Shown piece after piece: positions 3 through 42,750 of a stretch of 44,376 bases of DNA (position 1 is its first letter; every line of letters starts with the position of its first letter). The translations under genes were made by a program, and so were the position numbers. The stretch spans positions 27,045-71,420 of the forward strand of contig CAZRUM010000001.1 of NCBI GenBank assembly GCA_964603435.1, written 5' to 3'. The notes below the pieces were generated by a model. That model worked only from the letters and a program-made list of their open reading frames with translations. It was not told the DNA's origin and ran no database searches. The DNA is from an uncultured Gammaproteobacteria bacterium. GTDB taxonomy: Bacteria; Patescibacteriota; Patescibacteriia; Magasanikbacterales; UBA922.

Positions 3-821
3 TTTCTTTGTCTGGAGACCAAGATACATTTTCTACGCTATGAAAAAGCAATTTTAGAATATCCAGATGGCTCAAATATTATTTATGACTTCGAGACACA
101 AACCCAAGTCACTCTACCAAAACATTGGGAAGATTTTTCCTTTTCTGGAACTGGAGACAAAATTGCTGCCAAGAGCTTGGGTTTTTCCGAAGAAAACCAA
201 TGGCTCATTACCTCTGATGCAGAGGGTAAAAACATAAAACTTATTGAACCAATGGGGGCAAATGCTGACAAAGTAGAAGTCAACTGGTCCCCTAGCAACC
301 AAGTGGTGGCTCTATCACGCACTGGTGAAGCTTTGGGTTCAGATCGTCAACAAATTTTATTAGTTGGTTTGAATGGTGAAAATTTTCAAGGCCTTATCGT
401 TGAAGGACGTGGGCTAGTGGATCAATGGTCACCTCAAGGTGAAAAACTTCTTTACAGTGTTTATAATGCTCGTAATGATTATCAACCTGAATTGTGGGTA
501 GTAAATGCTTATGGAGATCAAATTGGAACCAATAGACGATTGTTAGGTCTAAATACTTGGGCCGACAAATGTACTTTTGAAAATGAGAGATTTGTTTACT
601 GTGGGGTACCCAGTTTTCTAGAAACTGGAGCTGGCTTTGCTAGACAAATAGCAGATTATACTACCGATAAATTAATAAAAATAGACTTGGAAAGCGGTAT
701 AAAAACTGAAATTCCTCTAAATAGTTCTCACACTATAGATACTATTTTCTTGGACTCGACTAATGAAAATATTTATTTTACAGACAAAAGTCAAAATGGA
801 CTTTTTAGCATAGAATTATAA
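3..821 (+). CDS. 5'-truncated beta-propeller/TolB-like surface protein
   Basis: Frame is open from nt 3 (…KAILEYPDGSNIIYDFETQTQVTLPKHWEDFSFSG…), so the 177 start is internal; repeated WSP motifs resemble TolB/PD40-like propellers. Confidence 0.6.
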   Translation, partial: FLCLETKIHFLRYEKAILEYPDGSNIIYDFETQTQVTLPKHWEDFSFSGTGDKIAAKSLGFSEENQWLITSDAEGKNIKLIEPMGANADKVEVNWSPSNQVVALSRTGEALGSDRQQILLVGLNGENFQGLIVEGRGLVDQWSPQGEKLLYSVYNARNDYQPELWVVNAYGDQIGTNRRLLGLNTWADKCTFENERFVYCGVPSFLETGAGFARQIADYTTDKLIKIDLESGIKTEIPLNSSHTIDTIFLDSTNENIYFTDKSQNGLFSIEL

Positions 822-34538: not shown

Positions 34539-35555
34539 TTAGCCTTTTTTTAGCAATTTTACCACAAAAAACCCTTCCATCTCTTTATCAGGCATAATGC
34601 GTAAAGATTTTTTAACAACGTCCTTATTTATTTCCTTATTTTTGAATATTTTTACAATTGGCAACCTCGCTACATCCAAGTCAATTGGAAGTATTTCACA
34701 ATTACTCGTATGTTCTACAAATTTACTAATTTGCAATTCATTTTCCTCTGGAGCAAAAGTACAAGTAGAATAAACTAAAACTCCTCCCGGTTTAAGAGCT
34801 CCCCAGGCAGATCTCAACAAATCTGATTGTTTGTGTGCCATTTCTTTAACTTTTTGCTCGTTCCAATAAGAAAAACTCTTAGGTCTATCAACCAAAAATC
34901 TAGCTTCTGCACTACAAGGTGCGTCAAGCAAAATTTTATCAAAATACTCTGGATATTCTTTACCAAGTACTACTCCATCCTCCGAACGAAGAGTAAATTG
35001 CCAATCATCGAGCTCCCCCTCTATAACGGCAGACGAGTTTACCACACCCAACAATTCCATATTATGTTTCAACTTCAAAAATCTTATTCTATTATTATCA
35101 TTAGCGACTAGCTCACCTTTTCTCACCCCCTCTGAATCAGACATCAAAGCGGCAATTTGTGAAGTTTTACTTCCAGGAGCGGCGGTCAGATCCAAAACTT
35201 TTTCTCCGGACTGAGGAGATAAAACTAACGGAGGGACCATGCTAGCTAAACTCTGCAAATAAATTTTACCTGTCTTATAAATATCCAAATCAAGTATGTC
35301 TTGTTTCCACTTGTTTTGCAAAATAAAAGCATCTTTATACCAAGAGACATCTTTGAGTTTGAAACCATTTTCTAATAATATCTTTTCAATATCTTGTCTT
35401 GTTGTTTTTAAACTATTAGCACGAAAAGTAATTGGTTTCTTTACAAAAGTAGACTTAATTTCCTCAGACAAAGAAACACCAAACATTTCTGTCAGGCGTT
35501 CTAAAAAAATTTCTGATATAGAAGTAGATTGTTTTGTTTTTTTATTTTTTCCCAT
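34539..35555 (-). CDS. RsmB/RsmF (NOL1/NOP2) RNA m5C methyltransferase
   Basis: YLQSLASM, LDLTAAPGSKT, ILLDAPCS, LVYSTCT, EGFF. Confidence 0.92.
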   Translation of the reverse strand: MGKNKKTKQSTSISEIFLERLTEMFGVSLSEEIKSTFVKKPITFRANSLKTTRQDIEKILLENGFKLKDVSWYKDAFILQNKWKQDILDLDIYKTGKIYLQSLASMVPPLVLSPQSGEKVLDLTAAPGSKTSQIAALMSDSEGVRKGELVANDNNRIRFLKLKHNMELLGVVNSSAVIEGELDDWQFTLRSEDGVVLGKEYPEYFDKILLDAPCSAEARFLVDRPKSFSYWNEQKVKEMAHKQSDLLRSAWGALKPGGVLVYSTCTFAPEENELQISKFVEHTSNCEILPIDLDVARLPIVKIFKNKEINKDVVKKSLRIMPDKEMEGFFVVKLLKKG

Positions 35556-35582
35556 AGAAACACAAAATCCCATTAACCATGA

Positions 35583-36878
35583 TTATGGCTTGAGACGATT
35601 TACCAATCTAGGAAACAGGGTACATTCACGAATATGTTCTGCCCCAGATATCCAACGTACAGTTCTTTCAATGCCTATACCAAAGCCACTATGTGGCACA
35701 GAGCCATATTTTCTAAGATCAGTATACCATTTGTAATCTTCTTCACTTAAATTATCTTCTTTGATGCGTTCTGATAATAAAGCAAAATCATCCTCACGTT
35801 GTGAACCACCAATCAGCTCCCCTGCCCCTTCAATTCCAATCAGATCACTATTCAAAACTCGTGAATCATCTTCCTTATCAATCTTCATATAAAATGGTTT
35901 GATATTTTTTGGCCATTTTTCTATAAAGACTGGCACATCAGAATCTTTCGTAAGCAAACCTTCATCGTCATTTCCCAAATCTTCTCCATGTTTTATATCA
36001 CTACCCACCTCATTTAATTTTTTGATAGCTTCATCATAAGTATAACGAGTAAATGGTTTGTCCATCATTTTTTCCAATGCAGCAGTATCACGTTCTAGAA
36101 TTTTAAACTCTGCCCCACAATCTGCTAAACATTTTTTAACAATGGCTTTTACCAGACCTTCTTGAATATCCAAGTTTTCATCATGTTCTACAAAAGCAGC
36201 TTCTGCATCCATCATCCAAAATTCTGTTAGATGACGCTTGGTAGTAGATTTTTCTGCTCTAAACACTGGACCAAAATCATAACAACGCCCCACTGAAGAA
36301 ATGGCTGCTTCAATATAAAGCTGTCCAGATTGAGATAGATAAGCTTCACCTAGATCAAAGTATGGCACAGGGAATAAAGTAGTAGTCCCTTCACAAGCAT
36401 TTGGAGTAAAAATTGGTGAGTCAGTTCTAATAAAACCAATAGTATGAAGATATTCATTTACAGCAGTTTCAATCACATCACGAATACGTAAAATTGCCCA
36501 CTGTTTTTTTGAGCGAAGCCAAAGATGACGATTGTCTGATAAAAATTCTGGACCATGTTCTTTTAATGCAATTGGATATTCTTCTGCCAATTGAATAATT
36601 TTAAAATCCGTTACTTGAAGCTCAAAGACACCTTCTTGCTTTGGGTGAGCTACCACCTTTCCACTAGCTTCCAAAGATGACTCTTGGGTTATTTTCTCGA
36701 CCTCTTCCCACATCTCTTCTGCTAAATCACTTTTGGCAGCCACAGCCTGGACAAAACCAGTACCGTCACGCAATTCCAAAAAAGCTAATTTTCCAGATGA
36801 GCGTTTGTTGTATAGCCAGCCTTTAATTGTAACTTCGCTATCAACATGACTAGAGATATCTTTTATAAATGTCTGCAT
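35583..36878 (-). CDS. asnS: Asparagine--tRNA ligase
   Basis: NRHLWLRS, YLSQSGQLY, FRAEKS, HLTEFWM, GGSQRE, YGSVPHSGFGIGIER; start at MQTFIK. Confidence 0.96.
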   Translation of the reverse strand: MQTFIKDISSHVDSEVTIKGWLYNKRSSGKLAFLELRDGTGFVQAVAAKSDLAEEMWEEVEKITQESSLEASGKVVAHPKQEGVFELQVTDFKIIQLAEEYPIALKEHGPEFLSDNRHLWLRSKKQWAILRIRDVIETAVNEYLHTIGFIRTDSPIFTPNACEGTTTLFPVPYFDLGEAYLSQSGQLYIEAAISSVGRCYDFGPVFRAEKSTTKRHLTEFWMMDAEAAFVEHDENLDIQEGLVKAIVKKCLADCGAEFKILERDTAALEKMMDKPFTRYTYDEAIKKLNEVGSDIKHGEDLGNDDEGLLTKDSDVPVFIEKWPKNIKPFYMKIDKEDDSRVLNSDLIGIEGAGELIGGSQREDDFALLSERIKEDNLSEEDYKWYTDLRKYGSVPHSGFGIGIERTVRWISGAEHIRECTLFPRLVNRLKP

Positions 36879-36900
36879 ATTTTTATGTTTAAGTATAATT

Positions 36901-36929
36901 ATATTAACAATTTTAGCTAATTTTAGCAA
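36901..36929 (-). promoter_or_regulatory. Probable asnS promoter
   Basis: TTGCTA-17 nt-TAATAT with extended -10 TGT. Confidence 0.5.
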
Positions 36930-37008
36930 GGTTTGGTTCCCACCATTGGACACATTCCGAACTATGGAGTGGGAAAGGATGTCTGGTTGGATAAAACCTA
37001 GTATTTAT

Positions 37009-37506
37009 TCATCCTACAAATACTGAGTAATGTTTGTTGATGTTATCCATTAAAGACACCGGTACTACTTTATCAGCAGATTCACAAAAAAAGTTAAACA
37101 ACGGCATCACCTCACAAGTTAAGCCTTTGACATCCCATGGTCTATTCTCATCATTTGCATCCAATCTAAAAGTCGTGAGATGACCCACTTCTTTATCCGC
37201 ACGGTTTTTTGCTCTCACAAGTGTTTCACTTAAATCTGACCTGATTTCTTCCCAAGTCTCTTTTTTAATAAAAAAATTCTTTGCGCACACATCAGTATCT
37301 CTTACTTCACCTGGTGGGTAAAGAAAATTAATCAGATTACGCAGATGAATCACATATGATTCAAGAGTCATGTACTCTAATCCCCGTGTAATTTGAAATT
37401 CTTCTGCTATTGCGTGTGTCGCATTTAATAACATTTGAACTTCATACCTTACGTGTTCCTTAAAGTAATCTAATAATTGTTCTTCACTTAAATCTTTTGT
37501 TTTCAT
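37009..37506 (-). CDS. Hypothetical helical protein, possible HEPN-like RNase
   Basis: LESYVIHLRNL and RADKEVGH (Rx6H); sits at the tRNA-Asn 3' end. Confidence 0.6.
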   Translation of the reverse strand: MKTKDLSEEQLLDYFKEHVRYEVQMLLNATHAIAEEFQITRGLEYMTLESYVIHLRNLINFLYPPGEVRDTDVCAKNFFIKKETWEEIRSDLSETLVRAKNRADKEVGHLTTFRLDANDENRPWDVKGLTCEVMPLFNFFCESADKVVPVSLMDNINKHYSVFVG

Positions 37507-37558
37507 ATTGATTAATCATAACAAAAAAGAAGCAAACCGTAAAGTTCGAATCCAGTCG

Positions 37559-37631
37559 CTCCCCCAGCTGGGTTTGAACCAACAACCTCTGCGTTAACAG
37601 CGCAGCGCTCTACCAATTGAACTACAGGGGA
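37559..37631 (-). tRNA. tRNA-Asn(GTT)
   Basis: TCCCCTG/TGGGGGA acceptor stem, CTGCG-CTGTTAA-CGCAG anticodon arm, GGTTCAAACCC T arm; CCA not encoded. Confidence 0.94.
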
Positions 37632-37639
37632 ATAAAAAT

Positions 37640-37665
37640 AAAAAACCCGCTTGTTTAGCGGGATT
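37640..37665 (-). terminator. Attenuator terminator upstream of tRNA-Asn
   Basis: ATCCCGC-TAAACAA-GCGGG-TTTTTT ending about 8 nt before the tRNA. Confidence 0.82.
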
Positions 37666-37688
37666 TTAGTAATTTTTTATATATAAAA

Positions 37689-37742
37689 CTACATCCCGCA
37701 AGCGGTATTATTATTGTTATTATTGTTATTTAATAGTTTCAT
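37689..37742 (-). CDS. Asn-rich leader peptide MKLLNNNNNNNNTACGM
   Basis: 17-codon ORF with 8 consecutive AAT/AAC codons; its 3' part GCGGGAT can pair with the terminator 5' arm. Confidence 0.85.
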   Translation of the reverse strand: MKLLNNNNNNNNTACGM

Positions 37743-37746
37743 ATGT

Positions 37747-39066
37747 TTATATTGTAGTAGACTTTAGGCTGTTTGTCAACCTATCTATTCTAATCTTGTA
37801 AGAATCTATATCTAAATTTCCTGCCGCCCCTAAAGATACTTTTGATTTTAAATTATTTTCAACATCCACCTCGTAATCAGCAAACTTTTCAGATGCTTGC
37901 TTGTAGGCATCTCTGAACGGTAGATTCTCTTTCAAAACCAACTCGTTTGCATAATCTGCCATAAAAATATCTTTATTGATATTACTCTTTATTTCTTCTC
38001 CATTTGGTTTTATTCCCTTCAGTACCACACCTACAACCTCTATAGTATCTAGGATAATCTTAATGCTTTCAAATAAAGGTTTTTTCATAAGCTGGCTTTG
38101 TCTATTGTAACCAGAGACAATTCCATTATTCAGATTTTTTAACATCATTTGATTGGCCGAAATTACTTCTGCCTGACCTTTTACAATTTCCAGCACATCT
38201 AGATTTTTCTTGTGAGGCATAATACTCGAACCCGTCACGATATTATCATGAACTGAAAAATACTTACATTCTTGAGAGGTAAAAAACAACATGTCAGTAG
38301 CAAATCTCGACATTGTCATCATAACCTGAGACAGACCCTCCATCATCATACTCTCATACTTTCCTTTTCCCGCCTGACAATAGAGAGAATTGACTTGTAT
38401 ACTTGCAAAACCTAGATTCTCAGTTGTGTTTTTTCTATCAAGCGGGATATTCACTCCAAACCCAGCAGCAGAACCCAGAGGATTTTTGTCTATCAGTTTT
38501 TGTATTGAATCTAGATAATCAATATCATCTAGAATACTTTCCAAAATACTTGCCATATAATGTCCCACACTAGAAAGCATAGCTTGTTGGGTATGAGAAT
38601 AACCTGGTAGAGGTATCTGTTCGTGACTCTTAGCAAAGTTAAAAAACTTTTGTGCTAACCCCAAATAATTTTTCTTTACCTCTTTCAACTTATTTTTCAT
38701 ATAGAGTCTCATAGCTACCAAAACCTGATCATTCCTACTTCTGCCAGTATGAATTTTTTTACCCACGTCTCCCAGCTTTTCTACTAAATAATTTTCAATT
38801 ACAGTATGACAATCCTCATCTTCAATTTTTATTTCTATTTTCCCACCTTCCCAATCTTTTTTAATCTCACCTAGAGCTGTTTGTAATTGTTCATTTTCCT
38901 CACCCGAAATAATTCCTATTTTCTCCAACATCTTGGCGTGAGCCTGGCTAGCTTCTACATCATAAAGAAACAATTCTTTGTCCCAAATAAAATCTTCACC
39001 CACAGTATATTTTTCAATACTTGGGTGTAACACCACATCATCTTTTTGCCAAAGTTTTTTATTCAT
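37747..39066 (-). CDS. argH: Argininosuccinate lyase
   Basis: IHTGRSRNDQV, PGYSHTQQA, PLGSAAG, TGSSIMPHKKNLD, PFRDAY. Confidence 0.96.
   Translation of the reverse strand: MNKKLWQKDDVVLHPSIEKYTVGEDFIWDKELFLYDVEASQAHAKMLEKIGIISGEENEQLQTALGEIKKDWEGGKIEIKIEDEDCHTVIENYLVEKLGDVGKKIHTGRSRNDQVLVAMRLYMKNKLKEVKKNYLGLAQKFFNFAKSHEQIPLPGYSHTQQAMLSSVGHYMASILESILDDIDYLDSIQKLIDKNPLGSAAGFGVNIPLDRKNTTENLGFASIQVNSLYCQAGKGKYESMMMEGLSQVMMTMSRFATDMLFFTSQECKYFSVHDNIVTGSSIMPHKKNLDVLEIVKGQAEVISANQMMLKNLNNGIVSGYNRQSQLMKKPLFESIKIILDTIEVVGVVLKGIKPNGEEIKSNINKDIFMADYANELVLKENLPFRDAYKQASEKFADYEVDVENNLKSKVSLGAAGNLDIDSYKIRIDRLTNSLKSTTI
37751..37779 (-). promoter_or_regulatory. Promoter of Asn leader/tRNA-Asn, inside the argH 3' end
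   Basis: TTGACA-17 nt-TACAAT ending 8 nt before the leader ATG. Confidence 0.8.
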
Positions 39067-39071
39067 ATACT

Positions 39072-40346
39072 TTAATTCTTATTTAATTCACCTTCAAAAT
39101 CATAAACATTATAAGCTGTCTTTTGTGCCATAGTATATAACTCAATAAAACCAGGTGAAGCATTTTGATTGAATTTCGGATCTTTATTGAATGTTGCCAA
39201 ACTCTCATCAAACAAAGAATAAGGTGAAAACAAAGCTGTAACTGTAATATTACCTTTATACAATTTTATTTTTGCCTTACCTGCCACCTTTTTATTCTGA
39301 CTATTAATAAAAGCATGGATATGATACATGACTGGGTCATACCACTTGGCACCATAAGTAAGATATGACCATTTTGTATCCACAAATTCTTTCAGTTCAT
39401 TTTCCTCTCTGGTAGATACTAATTGCTCCAATTTTTTATGAGCTGAAATGAGCATTGAGGCACCAGGGTTTTCATATATACCTCTAACCTTAAGCCCCAC
39501 AATTCTATCTTCTATCAAATTGAAAACTCCTACCCCATGCTTTGCTCCAATTTTATTACACTCCATTATTATTTCGCTCAGTTTTTTCTTTTCACCATTT
39601 AGCGCTACAGGTATACCTTTTTTGAATTCAACTTCAATAATCTCGGCTTCATCTGCAGAATTTTCTACAGTTTGACACCATTGCAAAATATTTTCCAAAG
39701 GTGGTTCTAATTCTGGATTTTCTATTTCCCCACCCTCACCAGTATTACTCCACATATTTTCATCATAAGAATATGGTGAATCTTTTTTTTGCTTTACTTC
39801 AATACCGTGTTTAACGGCATATTCTAATTCTTCTTCCCTGCCCATACCCCACTCCCTCACCGGTGCAATTATTTTGATATCTGGATCAAGTGTAGTCATA
39901 TAACCCTCAAATCTCACCTGATCATTACCTTTGCCAGTACAACCGTGAGCTATTACCTGACAACCATGTTCCTTGGCAACTTTGATAGCCACCTTGGAAA
40001 TTACAACTCTACCCAAAGGGCAACCCAGTGCATAGCCACCCTGATAGTCAGCATTGGCTTTGATAGCTTCTGACAACATCACATCGGCAAATTCGTCTTT
40101 AGCGTCATACACAATCACCTCGCTAGCCCCTAATTTCAAACCCTTCTCCTTTATCTCTTCTAGATTATCAGCAGTTTGACCAATATCAATGGTAAGGGCT
40201 ACTACCTCACAATTATATTCTTCTTTTATCCACTTGAGCATGACTGAAGTATCAAGCCCGCCAGAATAAAGTAAAAGACATTTATCAAATTCACCTTTTT
40301 TAGCTTCATAAGAAGCAATTTTTTTGTAATTATTTTGTGTATCCAT
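39072..40346 (-). CDS. argG: Argininosuccinate synthase
   Basis: YSGGLDTS, HGCTGKGNDQVRFE, YSYDENMW, IEDRIVGLKVRGIYE. Confidence 0.97.
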   Translation of the reverse strand: MDTQNNYKKIASYEAKKGEFDKCLLLYSGGLDTSVMLKWIKEEYNCEVVALTIDIGQTADNLEEIKEKGLKLGASEVIVYDAKDEFADVMLSEAIKANADYQGGYALGCPLGRVVISKVAIKVAKEHGCQVIAHGCTGKGNDQVRFEGYMTTLDPDIKIIAPVREWGMGREEELEYAVKHGIEVKQKKDSPYSYDENMWSNTGEGGEIENPELEPPLENILQWCQTVENSADEAEIIEVEFKKGIPVALNGEKKKLSEIIMECNKIGAKHGVGVFNLIEDRIVGLKVRGIYENPGASMLISAHKKLEQLVSTREENELKEFVDTKWSYLTYGAKWYDPVMYHIHAFINSQNKKVAGKAKIKLYKGNITVTALFSPYSLFDESLATFNKDPKFNQNASPGFIELYTMAQKTAYNVYDFEGELNKN

Positions 40347-40435
40347 ATATTTCTATTATTAGATTAATTATACTATTTAGCTTACCAATACCATTGCCAA
40401 ATCGGTTATGATAAAAGATTTGCCTCACGACAAAT

Positions 40436-40465
40436 AAAAAACCTCTCTCGTAAGAGGAGGTTTTT
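40436..40465 (-). terminator. Attenuator terminator upstream of argG
   Basis: AAAAACCTC-CTC-TTAC-GAG-A-GAGGTTTTTT. Confidence 0.82.
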
Positions 40466-40486
40466 AAAGTTTGTAAATATACTAAA

Positions 40487-40546
40487 CTAACCAACTCTTA
40501 CGGAGAGGAACATACGACGACGGTTATTTAGTAAATAATTTTTCAT
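40487..40546 (-). CDS. Arg-containing leader peptide MKNYLLNNRRRMFLSVRVG
   Basis: 19-codon ORF with CGT-CGT-CGT; its CGTAAGAG is complementary to CTCTTACG of the terminator. Confidence 0.83.
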   Translation of the reverse strand: MKNYLLNNRRRMFLSVRVG

Positions 40547-40555
40547 AACAAATCT

Positions 40556-40584
40556 AGTTTAGCAACTATTTAATTTTATGTCAA
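40556..40584 (-). promoter_or_regulatory. Promoter of Arg leader/argGH
   Basis: TTGACA-17 nt-TAAACT with extended -10 TGC, ending 9 nt before the leader ATG; -35 overlaps the last recO codons. Confidence 0.78.
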
Positions 40585-41196
40585 GTTTACAATCTTACCC
40601 CAATCCCCAACTTTCCTATCAGTATTAAAAACCAAAGCTTTGTAAATAAAATTATGAACTTGTTTATTATATTCTAATTTACTTACAGCCTGCCAATTTC
40701 CCTCAGACAATTCTTTTAGCCCCACCTTCACACTAGCAGAGGCTTTTTCTAATTCTGTAATATCAAAACCTAACAAAATTAATAATTTAACAAAAAAACT
40801 ATCTAATAAAGTTTGATATTTAGATTCTGAAGTCTGAAGGCTAACGAATTCAAGCCAACTCAAAATTAAATTAAAAATATCTTGATCTTTCTCACCTTCA
40901 TGTAATATTTTATCGAGGGCTGACATTACAAACCCAGCTGATAAACTTTTTTGTAAATCACGTCTGATATTGGAAAAATAATTCACAGGCTGGGCTGCAC
41001 CGAGATACGCAATCCCCTTCCCAGAAATAATTTCTAAATCTACGAAAGAAAACGGCTCTAAATGAGCCGAATTTTTACTAGTTATTTTTTTTACTCCCCG
41101 TGCAAGAACTTCCAGTTTTCCTTTTTCTAAAGTATAGAATGAAATAATCTGATCGTTTTCTTTTATGTCACGGCGAGAGAGGATGAGAGATTGCAT
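40576..41196 (-). CDS. recO: DNA repair protein RecO
   Basis: ENDQIISFYTLEKGKLEVLARGVKKITSK, HLEPFS OB-fold N-terminus. Confidence 0.9.
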   Translation of the reverse strand: MQSLILSRRDIKENDQIISFYTLEKGKLEVLARGVKKITSKNSAHLEPFSFVDLEIISGKGIAYLGAAQPVNYFSNIRRDLQKSLSAGFVMSALDKILHEGEKDQDIFNLILSWLEFVSLQTSESKYQTLLDSFFVKLLILLGFDITELEKASASVKVGLKELSEGNWQAVSKLEYNKQVHNFIYKALVFNTDRKVGDWGKIVNLT

Positions 41197-41199
41197 ATT

Positions 41200-41547
41200 T
41201 TAAATCTCAGTATATTTTTTATTATCACCTTTACATTTTTCTACTGGATATTTTTCTGCATTCTTTTTCATCTTCTGTTCTACGGCTTCAAAAATATCAA
41301 TGTTCAAGACTTTAGCTAATTCAAATAGATAAACTGCTACATCAGCCATTTCATCTTTGATATCATTATGCTTTTCTTTTACTCGTTTATCTAGTTTTTC
41401 GGCTGTCACCCATAAAAATAATTCGGACAGTTCGCTAGCTTCAATGGACAGGGCCATAGCCAAATCTTTGGGGTTGTGAAACTGACGCCAATCACGATCT
41501 TGCATAAACTTATCAATCATCTTAAGTGTTTCATCGTATCTATCCAT
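41200..41547 (-). CDS. MazG-like nucleotide pyrophosphohydrolase
   Basis: RDWRQFHNPKDLAMALSIEASEL, DEMADV, KNAEKYP; start at MDRY. Confidence 0.92.
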   Translation of the reverse strand: MDRYDETLKMIDKFMQDRDWRQFHNPKDLAMALSIEASELSELFLWVTAEKLDKRVKEKHNDIKDEMADVAVYLFELAKVLNIDIFEAVEQKMKKNAEKYPVEKCKGDNKKYTEI

Positions 41548-41548
41548 A

Positions 41549-41914
41549 TTATTTTTTATTATCCAAATAACCTCGTAAAATAAGCATGGCAGCTTTTTCA
41601 TCTCGACTGGCTTCTCCCTCCATTCTATCGGCCTGCGCTGAAGTAAAACGCTCGTCGACAAAAAATATTGGTTTATCTATTTTAGTTTTCAATTCACCCA
41701 CAAATTCATTTACCCTATCAGTGTTTTTATTTTCCTTTGCATCCAAACCAAAAGGCATTCCAAATACTATTTTGTCTATATTTTCTTTTTTAATAACAGA
41801 CACTAATTCTTCCAAACCACCAACTACACCAAAAGGCAAGACAACATCAAGACCAACTTGCATCCAAGCAAGGCCCGTGCGTTTTTTTCCATAGTCTACA
41901 CCAAGTATATTCAT
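41549..41914 (-). CDS. yqgF: YqgF/RuvX nuclease
   Basis: LGVDYGKKRTGLA, GMP, VDERFTS, DEKAAMLIL. Confidence 0.92.
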   Translation of the reverse strand: MNILGVDYGKKRTGLAWMQVGLDVVLPFGVVGGLEELVSVIKKENIDKIVFGMPFGLDAKENKNTDRVNEFVGELKTKIDKPIFFVDERFTSAQADRMEGEASRDEKAAMLILRGYLDNKK

Positions 41915-41916
41915 AA

Positions 41917-42750
41917 TTATTTTAATTCTTGAGGTCTTCTAGTTACAACCATAGGACCTGTCTTTGTAATAACAATAGTATGTTCCTGATGAGAACAAAG
42001 CTTTCCATCTACTGTAGAAATACTCCAACCATCATCAGCTGTTTTTACATGATAATCACCAATAGTAATCATCGGTTCAATCGCGATTACCACACCTTCT
42101 TGTAAAACATAACTTTCTAAATTTTTATCATAATAATTTGGTACACGAGGATCTTCATGAACACTATGACCTACACCATGCCCAACCAAATCACGCACGA
42201 TACCATAACCCTGAGGCTCCACCCAAGATTGAATTGCTTTGCCAATATCTGCCACTGTATTTCCAACCTGACATTGTTCTATACCAATTTCCAAAGCCTT
42301 TTTTGTAACGGCAATTAATTGTTTAGTTTTCTCTGGCACCTCACCCACAACAACTGTGATAGCAGTGTCAGTGTAATATCCATTTCCATTCTCTCCAACT
42401 GGCTTGCCCGCCGTAGCTTTAGCAGAGGTGGGCCATTGCATACCAATATCAATACTGAAGATATCACCATCATTTAATACTTTATCTTTAGTAGCAATAC
42501 CATGTACTAACTCTTCATTTTTGGAAGCACAAATGGTAGATGGAAAAGGAGGGTCACTTTTTCTCCCTTTATACCCCTTAAAAGCTGGTCTTCCTCCAGC
42601 TTCTTTTATAAGACGCTCTGCTTCTACATCAACATCCCAGGCAGTTATACCTGGTTTTACCATATCTCCCAATTTTTCTAAAATTTCCCCCAAAATTTTA
42701 CCACCTTGTTTAATTTTCTCTATTTCTTCTTGTGATTTTATATAGCTCAT
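41917..42750 (-). CDS. map: Methionine aminopeptidase type I
   Basis: VHGI, SIDIG, DTAIT, GHGVG…HEDP, AIEPM, HQEHT. Confidence 0.96.
   Translation of the reverse strand: MSYIKSQEEIEKIKQGGKILGEILEKLGDMVKPGITAWDVDVEAERLIKEAGGRPAFKGYKGRKSDPPFPSTICASKNEELVHGIATKDKVLNDGDIFSIDIGMQWPTSAKATAGKPVGENGNGYYTDTAITVVVGEVPEKTKQLIAVTKKALEIGIEQCQVGNTVADIGKAIQSWVEPQGYGIVRDLVGHGVGHSVHEDPRVPNYYDKNLESYVLQEGVVIAIEPMITIGDYHVKTADDGWSISTVDGKLCSHQEHTIVITKTGPMVVTRRPQELK
42406..42433. repeat. In-frame palindromic insertion in map (PTSAKATAG)
   Basis: GCCCGCC-GTA-GCT-TT-AGC-AGA-GGTGGGC hairpin in the loop between the two metal-binding Asp residues. Confidence 0.68.

Follow-up and report, generated by a model that had tools for sequence, protein, structure and literature searches.

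Predicted leader-peptide attenuators with promoters abutting their start codons precede argG-argH and a tRNA-Asn gene in a Patescibacteria genome

The window analysed here is the whole of a 44,376-nucleotide (nt) stretch of DNA from an uncultured bacterium of the Patescibacteriota (GTDB lineage Magasanikbacterales, UBA922; assembly GCA_964603435.1, contig CAZRUM010000001.1, positions 27,045 to 71,420 of the forward strand). Between 35 and 42 kb every gene is encoded on the minus strand, in the order recO, argG, argH, the transfer RNA (tRNA) gene for asparagine (tRNA-Asn), an open reading frame (ORF) of 165 amino acids (aa) and asnS. The elements in question are two small ORFs (sORFs) of 17-19 codons, one upstream of argG-argH (the Arg unit) and the other upstream of tRNA-Asn (the Asn unit). 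The Arg unit and its target genes have the following features:

40579..40584, minus strand: Arg-leader promoter, -35 hexamer TTGACA, which overlaps the final recO codons (read from the sequence and found by the promoter scan)
40576-40578, minus strand: stop codon of recO, the gene whose end is overlapped
40556..40561, minus strand: -10 hexamer TAAACT with an upstream TGn, 17-nt spacer from the -35 hexamer and 9 nt to the ATG
40487..40546, minus strand: Arg leader sORF, MKNYLLNNRRRMFLSVRVG plus stop codon, ATG at 40546; homologous Arg-codon sORFs stand before argG elsewhere
40514..40522, minus strand: three tandem CGT (Arg) codons, the putative regulatory codons, read directly
40488..40503, minus strand: predicted antiterminator strand, the 3' end of the Arg sORF, complementary to the terminator 5' arm (E -16.2 kcal/mol, z score -5.2)
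40432..40465, minus strand: intrinsic terminator of the Arg attenuator, stem and U-tract (terminator scan and fold)
39072..40346, minus strand: argG, argininosuccinate synthase by protein family, the first gene under the predicted control
37747..39066, minus strand: argH, by position argininosuccinate lyase (Lyase_1 family), with the Asn-leader promoter in its 3' end

The N-terminus of the Arg sORF reads MKNYLLNNRRR..., and 24-29 nt separate its stop codon from the terminator stem. In the Asn unit the corresponding distance is 26 nt, and the U-tract abuts the tRNA-Asn gene, leaving no space for a separate promoter. Its features are:

37774..37779, minus strand: -35 hexamer TTGACA of the Asn-leader promoter, inside argH
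37751..37756, minus strand: -10 hexamer TACAAT, inside argH, 17 nt from the -35 hexamer and 8 nt to the ATG
37747-37749, minus strand: argH stop codon (sequence reading)
37689..37742, minus strand: Asn leader sORF, MKLLNNNNNNNNTACGM plus stop codon, ATG at 37742, beginning MKLLNNNNNNNN (sORF scan and relatives)
37707..37730, minus strand: eight tandem Asn codons (AAT/AAC), read directly
37692..37706, minus strand: predicted antiterminator strand, the 3' end of the Asn sORF, pairing with both terminator arms in the minimum-energy fold (z about -6)
37632..37662, minus strand: intrinsic terminator of the Asn attenuator (terminator scan), stem 37646-37662, U-tract up to the tRNA 5' end
37558..37631, minus strand: tRNA-Asn(GTT), the sole tRNA-Asn found in the assembly

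The initial annotation had described promoters embedded in the 3' ends of the upstream genes, start codons about 1-3 nt from the predicted transcription start and stop codons shortly before the terminators. All three points agree with the features listed: the Arg -35 hexamer overlaps recO, both Asn hexamers lie in argH and, if transcription begins at the seventh base after the -10 box, promoter geometry places the start 2 nt (Asn) and 3 nt (Arg) before the ATG. A match between codon run and downstream function, which the annotation had proposed looking for, is also present, with three CGT codons before argG-argH and eight AAY codons before tRNA-Asn and asnS. From the sequence anatomy, the alternative pairings, their conservation and this match between run and target we infer transcription start, sORF translation, stalling and read-through, and we consider both units very probably to be ribosome-mediated (leader-peptide) transcription attenuators.

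The features that define the two units stand out from chance. In a scan of positions 35000-42000 (7 kb) the Arg and Asn promoters were the top two of 29 promoter-like sites, scoring 11/12 and 10/12, while such sites as a class were not enriched (29 vs 26.1 expected). Terminator-like sites were enriched in the same scan (11 vs 3.3 expected), and both unit terminators are among them. Six consecutive AAY codons occur once in the window, in the Asn unit, and in none of 100 shuffles. Each leader folds with a z score of -5.1, a stability reached by 0/200 shuffles, and in both minimum-energy folds the sORF 3' end is paired with the terminator region. The complementarity between the sORF 3' end and the terminator 5' arm has z scores of -5.2 (Arg) and -6.0 (Asn) against 300 shuffles. 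Both units hence combine a sORF with tandem cognate codons, an intrinsic terminator ahead of the target and a computationally predicted alternative antiterminator pairing, as expected for attenuators.

The Asn unit recurs across the family to which the window belongs. A BLAST search with tRNA-Asn gave 15 tRNA-Asn loci, all of them (15/15) with a sORF and a terminator directly upstream. Next to nothing was found by BLAST in other families, where a covariance model of tRNA-Asn was used instead; the same kind of model, run on 61 genomes of the window's family, gave 61 loci in 53 genomes. A sORF with at least four Asn in seven residues, no more than 280 nt upstream of tRNA-Asn, was present at 46 of these loci (44 genomes), and one extra locus with NNN brings the Asn leader to 47/61 loci and 45/53 genomes. 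At the other 14 loci an AAY run is missing and an ordinary promoter stands beside tRNA-Asn; four of these loci are the second tRNA-Asn copy of a genome whose other copy has the leader. Outside the family such a sORF was found at none of 10 tRNA-Asn loci in 9 genomes, which came from three other families of the order and from Gracilibacteria, Peregrinibacteria, Saccharibacteria and Altimarinota records.

The architecture of the Asn leaders is conserved along with their presence. AAY runs of at least three codons upstream of tRNA-Asn are in frame with an ATG-started sORF at 47/47 loci. A promoter scoring at least 9/12 precedes 41 of 46 leaders, and in 39 of 46 the distance from the end of the -10 box to the ATG is 6-9 nt (22 leaders with 8 nt, 14 with 9 nt and 3 with 6 nt). 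T occupies position -1 in all 45 leaders scored, YAT stands directly before the ATG in 26/46, and the second codon is Lys in 31/46. The 15 leaders that were studied closely all have a terminator, with a stop codon 17-37 nt ahead of it; the antiterminator pairing reaches z < -2 in 14 of them (median -4.5), and its start lies 8-17 nt downstream of the final Asn codon, counted from the first base of that codon.

At one of the relatives' loci (L158, genome G026), the tRNA-Asn at 1501-1574 is preceded by the leader terminator, the first bases of a tRNA-Asn and about 100 nt of other sequence before the complete tRNA begins. This arrangement looks like the remnant of an insertion or duplication.

All 61 relatives have asnS. 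Of 30 asnS loci surveyed (three of them not placed by the script), only 5 show a poly-Asn sORF upstream, and the same five have tRNA-Asn in between; asnS lies downstream of tRNA-Asn, on the same strand and within the examined stretch, in only 7 of 31 loci. Judged from these gene orders, it is the tRNA-Asn gene, rather than asnS, that constantly accompanies the Asn leader. In the window, two further genes follow tRNA-Asn:

37009..37506, minus strand: 165-aa ORF between tRNA-Asn and asnS, its ATG 8 nt past the end of a 9/12 promoter-like site
35583..36953, minus strand: asnS, of the asparaginyl-tRNA synthetase type by protein family

The 165-aa ORF has no Pfam family match and is absent beside tRNA-Asn in the 30 other loci compared. 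The terminator scan called no terminator between tRNA-Asn and asnS, which is possibly co-transcribed with the tRNA.

The Arg unit has a wider and more scattered distribution. In a sample of relatives (61 genomes, the window's own included) argG is patchy, being present in 6/61 genomes. At three of the five relatives' loci argG is preceded by an Arg-codon sORF, a terminator and an abutting promoter; at the remaining two it follows another ORF and has no leader. A public survey of 80 argG loci was made with the criterion of an ATG-started sORF of 6-45 codons with RR plus a perfect-stem terminator, no more than 450 nt upstream. The nearest ArgG-bearing records were titled Patescibacteria, Candidatus Magasanikbacteria, Uhrbacteria, Peregrinibacteria, Gracilibacteria and Saccharibacteria. 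Such a sORF and terminator preceded argG in 22 of 37 records titled as members of the Candidate Phyla Radiation (CPR) and in 2 of 3 titled only 'bacterium', vs 0/40 non-CPR records (Balneolaceae, other Bacteroidota, Calditrichia and one gammaproteobacterium). Two further CPR loci, L087 and L095, have the sORF with an imperfect terminator.

A promoter scoring at least 9/12, with a -10 box ending 5-10 nt before an in-frame ATG, was present in 14/24 Arg leaders vs 37 of 2944 control ATGs (1.3%) from the same loci. Of 23 leaders in which the antiterminator pairing could be tested, the window's two units included, 16 reached z < -2 (median -3.2); the pairing stretch begins at the stop codon or over it, about 17-20 nt past the first Arg codon. 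In the 24 Arg leaders 58 of 69 run codons are CGT or CGC, and genome-wide AGA makes up 38% of Arg codons. Asn codons flank the Arg run in the four closest Arg leaders (the window's own, L075, L080 and L106). By these comparisons the Arg leader is conserved across several CPR lineages. Many CPR lineages share 67-79% identity in ArgG itself with Balneolaceae, Bacteroidota and Calditrichia (L071-L150), which together with the patchy presence of argG suggests lateral transfer. The shared design proposed in the initial annotation thus extends well beyond the window, since the spacing between -10 box and ATG is kept in 39/46 Asn and 14/24 Arg leaders vs 1.3% of control ATGs.

The promoter-to-ATG spacing has to be seen against the start context of the whole genome. 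The assembly (903 kb, 48 contigs, 36% G+C, 97% complete) contains no 16S rRNA gene. A Shine-Dalgarno (SD) core (AGGA, GGAG or GAGG at -18..-4) precedes only 7.7% of 607 gene starts, and SD-like purine runs are absent before both sORF ATGs as they are for almost all genes. Instead, gene starts have an A/T-rich upstream context with an A-rich run at -2..-13 and T at -1 (for example at window positions 40347 and 37743), this T being present in 82% of 611 starts vs 35% of 4099 internal in-frame ATGs. The sORFs share this genome-wide context, so the lack of an SD, correctly noted in the initial annotation, does not set them apart. The same applies to the N-terminal similarity (MK..LLNN), for which a common origin or Asn cross-sensing in the Arg leader had been suggested. 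Lys is the second residue in 21% of genes, and Asn makes up 7.5% of residues 2-8, compared with 7.6% in Arg leaders. The motif fits the N-terminal composition of the genome, and neither common origin nor cross-sensing is supported; a common origin of the two window sORFs based on 'LLNN' was accordingly rejected.

In most long genes the -10 box lies 21-40 nt before the start, and about 15 ordinary genes, map included, have a spacing of 6-9 nt. With a -10 box ending 8-9 nt before the ATG, the transcripts of both units would begin 0-3 nt before the start codon, and we hold such a start to be highly probable. Near-leaderless translation is likely because the promoter-to-ATG spacing is conserved. 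A leader of 1-3 nt, as opposed to a start exactly at the A of the ATG, is suggested by this spacing, by how often YAT precedes the ATG and by the invariant U at -1. Transcripts of recO and argGH could carry the sORFs as well. The strong U(-1) start context and the conserved promoter-ATG spacing also provide rules for calling genes and small ORFs in genomes of this type.

If both units act as attenuators, RNA polymerase would start at a strong sigma-70-type promoter 0-3 nt before the sORF ATG, and a ribosome would load without an SD and translate the sORF. When the cognate charged tRNA is plentiful, the ribosome would reach the stop codon and cover the antiterminator strand, so that the terminator forms and transcription ends. 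When Arg-tRNA (for CGY codons) or Asn-tRNA is scarce, the ribosome would stall on the tandem codons and leave the antiterminator strand, 10-20 nt further downstream, free to pair with the terminator 5' arm, and the polymerase would read on. The Arg unit would in this way control argG-argH, and the Asn unit would control tRNA-Asn directly and, in the window's genome, probably also the 165-aa ORF and asnS. For tRNA-Asn the result would be a feedback loop in which the charged tRNA sets the output of its own gene, holding the charged pool steady.

Several observations weigh against this reading or limit it. No Rfam leader family reaches its threshold for either unit, and only tRNAs reach the gathering score in the window. 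The Asn unit has sub-threshold scores with Trp_leader (RF00513, 29.4 vs 41 bits), Phe_leader (RF01859, 23.5 vs 55 bits) and Thr_leader (RF00506, 21.3 vs 55 bits), and the Arg unit has no match to a leader family; the sub-threshold matches of the Asn unit in themselves speak for the attenuator reading. An obvious 1:2 pause hairpin is lacking in both attenuators. Read-through would be expected of transcripts that are not translated. The sORF 3' end of the Asn unit also pairs, in the minimum-energy fold, with the terminator 3' arm beside the U-tract, in a long helix that may not prevent termination. The Asn ATG lies 5 nt past the argH stop codon with no terminator between argH and the Asn unit, and argGH ribosomes and transcripts may also feed this unit. 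Between the Arg terminator and argG there is a 9/12 promoter-like site (40372-40400, minus strand) with a perfect TATAAT nearby, in a gap of 95 nt vs 25-35 nt in most relatives; it may be a bypass promoter, by which part of argGH expression would escape the attenuator. The gene calls are crude, being longest ORFs, and the terminator finder needs perfect stems and missed the terminators of L087 and L095. Finally, the related genomes are kin and not independent samples, so the Asn counts show conservation rather than independent events.

The attenuators could be real without being leaderless, if the sORFs are carried on longer transcripts (by read-through from recO or argH, or from distant promoters), are initiated independently of an SD, and the hexamers are incidental. 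In its favour, translation does not require a transcript that begins at the ATG, since nearly all genes of this genome lack an SD and share the A/T-rich start context and U at -1; the Asn ATG also follows the argH stop by 5 nt with no terminator between. The Trp leader of the genome (described below) overlaps the end of its upstream gene and has no clear promoter, and in the Pro leaders 12-13 nt separate the -10 box from the ATG. We nevertheless consider this explanation unlikely, since TTGACA-16..18-TAnnnT ends 6-9 nt before the ATG in 39/46 Asn leaders, such geometry is also found in 14/24 Arg leaders from distant CPR lineages vs 1.3% of control ATGs, and most of these leaders have no preceding gene end. 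That the units instead control translation or RNA stability, as do the poly-Cys leaderless sORFs of mycobacteria, is very unlikely. A leaderless sORF with a codon run can unmask a downstream ribosome-binding site, according to the available part of the mycobacterial study (10.1101/834739), yet here a G+C-rich hairpin and its U-tract close every unit, a tRNA gene such as the Asn target offers no ribosome-binding site to mask, and SD sites are not used by the genome.

Both hairpins lie downstream of co-directional genes that have no other terminator, and A/T-rich DNA gives many Asn and Lys codons; the hairpins might then simply be the terminators of recO and argGH, and the sORFs chance frames in A/T-rich spacers. 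We find this extremely improbable. Six AAY codons in a row did not arise in 100 shuffles, and the AAY runs of at least three codons upstream of tRNA-Asn keep the frame of an ATG-started sORF at 47/47 loci. The Arg runs use rare-context CGY codons and are absent from the 40 non-CPR argG loci, and the antiterminator complementarity tracks terminators of differing sequence. A last explanation, that the peptides are functional products acting in trans and that gene position is secondary, has a precedent in the leader peptide peTrpL, for which the accessible part of a published account gives a trans function (PMC7298713). We give it next to no probability, as the relatives' peptides have no conserved sequence other than the MK start and the codon run. 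Transcription attenuation by leader peptides is the interpretation used in the remainder of the text.

In the attenuators of enterobacteria (trp, his, phe, thr, leu, ilv and pheST), tandem codons for the end product precede mutually exclusive hairpins, and the position of the ribosome decides between them. The window units likewise have an upstream ORF with tandem codons and mutually exclusive antiterminator and terminator. They differ in having no SD, a promoter that abuts the ATG and a minimal two-helix design without a clear 1:2 pause hairpin, and also in sensing Asn and Arg, in targeting argGH and a tRNA gene, and in belonging to a CPR/Patescibacteria lineage. T-box riboswitches also sense tRNA charging before synthetase genes with a terminator/antiterminator read-out. 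They bind uncharged tRNA directly without translation, unlike the window units, which have start and stop codons, in-frame runs and no specifier loop; the T-box model RF00230 has no match in the window.

PMC4007540 describes the Trp attenuation mechanism and reports leaderless leader peptides before synthetase and biosynthesis genes of Deinococcus deserti, comprising 14 units with mapped starts and predicted transcription attenuation (de Groot et al., 2014). Deinococcus is a closer precedent for the window units than the mycobacteria; it belongs to a different phylum, and its starts were mapped whereas those of the window are inferred. In mycobacteria, poly-Cys leaderless sORFs sense amino-acid supply via ribosome pausing, and several such loci form a 'ribulon', as stated in the available text of Canestrari et al. 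(10.1101/834739). The analogy with these sORFs drawn in the initial annotation would hold for leaderless sensing by a codon run. It fails for the level of control, since the mycobacterial sORFs act on translation, as far as that part of the source goes (10.1101/834739), and the window units end in intrinsic terminators; with hairpin and U-tract, a tRNA target and no SD sites, the window units do not show the unmasking of a ribosome-binding site described there. Leader peptides are also described before trpE, leuA, ilvB and aroF of Corynebacterium glutamicum in the part of PMC3890552 consulted.

In the texts searched, most subscription journals lying outside them, we found no paper joining Patescibacteria with leader peptides or attenuation. 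Nor did these texts, with the same bounds, yield an Arg leader before argG, an asnS leader peptide or a tRNA gene behind a leader peptide. The accessible portions of PMC6851277 and PMC12641261 hold nothing on the leaderless or CPR topic beyond reference-list entries and one figure legend. The mechanism is textbook and leaderless leader peptides are known from Deinococcus; the apparent novelties are the control of a tRNA gene through its own codons and this repertoire in CPR bacteria. On the comparative sequence evidence, we take the attenuators to be real and conserved; their kind is known, and what is new is the setting and, for one of them, the type of target.

The initial annotation had named the lack of further examples in this or related genomes as a refuting outcome. 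Trp, Pro-Pro and pyrBI-type units are present in the same genome and there are more in related genomes, so that refutation fails. A Trp leader sORF, MTKNNYNLENRSWRWCFCYSKVQC (W-R-W), lies with its terminator 27 nt before trpB-trpS (L038:3975-4049, minus strand). A TrpR-family gene (L038:4036-4317) ends within this sORF, and a clear promoter of the leader itself is lacking. Two relatives have a Trp-run sORF directly before trpS, which with the window's own genome makes 3/30 loci. The TrpR-family gene and the Trp leader suggest two layers of Trp control, with a tRNA synthetase placed behind a biosynthesis gene. The initial annotation had linked the design to a symbiont with few transcription factors; the Trp unit does have a regulator-family gene as its neighbour. 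A Pro-Pro leader, MNKQYSQFVPPGMDYYIL, precedes a class-III aminotransferase (ornithine aminotransferase) and proC, with an antiterminator and a terminator (L040:70-126, plus strand). This aminotransferase was found in 2 of 61 genomes, own included, and the other one has MKQSFLIQVNPPRQRYLL at the same place (L205, upstream of 1501). Both Pro leaders have a spacing of 12-13 nt from -10 box to ATG.

The pyrBI attenuator of Escherichia coli (pyrL) is controlled by how closely the ribosome trails the polymerase. The pyrB-pyrI sORF of the present genome, MVYKFHTIQTINN (L039:2256-2297, minus strand), begins 9 nt after TTGGCA-17-TAGAAT and has its stop at the foot of a strong terminator. Such a sORF, ending at or inside the terminator 5' arm and having no amino-acid run, was found at 5 of 11 pyrB loci with an upstream stretch, own included, and the pyrB units of four relatives have a terminator sequence alike. 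The likeness to pyrL lies in this position and in the lack of a run; the differences are the leaderless promoter geometry and the absence of an evident U-rich pause region in this unit, which lies outside the window.

Two synthetase genes have leaders of another type. Before thrS (L188:804-2579), a promoter TTGACA-17-TATTAT is followed by the T-box-like GGGTGGAACCG and a very stable terminator (leader L188:520-710, plus strand). A Thr leader peptide at this position (a GTG- or ATG-started sORF with T-A-T) was considered and rejected, the T-box-like GGGTGGAACCG standing ahead of the strong terminator. The leader looks like a reduced T-box; it gave no Rfam T-box match even at E <= 1. The leader of a class-I synthetase (L191:1676-) contains GGGTGGTACCG and a terminator (L191:1501-1633, plus strand) and has a weak T-box match. 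The sole T-box match in the genome, on contig C11, scores 28.5 bits vs a gathering score of 93, and the Rfam model seems unable to recognise T-box-like leaders as divergent as those of this lineage. No convincing sORF was found in the upstream region of the GlyRS gene, and the other combinations of sORF and terminator from the genome scans were set aside by eye, being mostly C-terminal pieces of upstream genes or having no codon run.

By these scans the genome holds about five leader-peptide units and two T-box-like leaders. The genome-wide family of leaderless sensor peptides proposed at the outset would accordingly be a real one; at about five units beside T-box-like leaders it is not sweeping. 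In a more far-reaching reading, the main tRNA-Asn gene across a CPR family would have no promoter of its own and would be transcribed only by attenuator read-through, in a closed and protein-free loop, and near-leaderless sensor peptides (Arg, Trp, Pro and pyr) together with T-box-like leaders would form the main metabolic control layer. We regard this reading as evenly balanced between true and false.

CPR bacteria have tiny genomes and have mostly not yet been grown alone, and their gene regulation is almost unstudied; the units would give them a regulatory layer without a regulator protein. The conservation of the Arg leader in several CPR lineages and of the Asn leader in one family is sufficient to model these elements and search for them. 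A leader-peptide attenuator on a tRNA gene with its own codons would, if true, be a new target for a textbook mechanism and a direct homeostat of tRNA supply.

Two minor observations were made elsewhere in the material. At L190:472-548 (plus strand) ARAGORN predicts a tRNA-Ile with anticodon AAT, behind the sORF MNNLITKNLIHHNKDLW (349-402) and a terminator; this tRNA scores below the Rfam tRNA threshold. A near-identical palindromic hairpin with the core GAGACGCGATTAATCGCGTCTC recurs in the genome (C10:1453-1480, C17:1620-1647, C40:6001-6032, C8:22294-22321, C13 near 18700 and C2 near 15300) and may be a dispersed repeat or a shared terminator.

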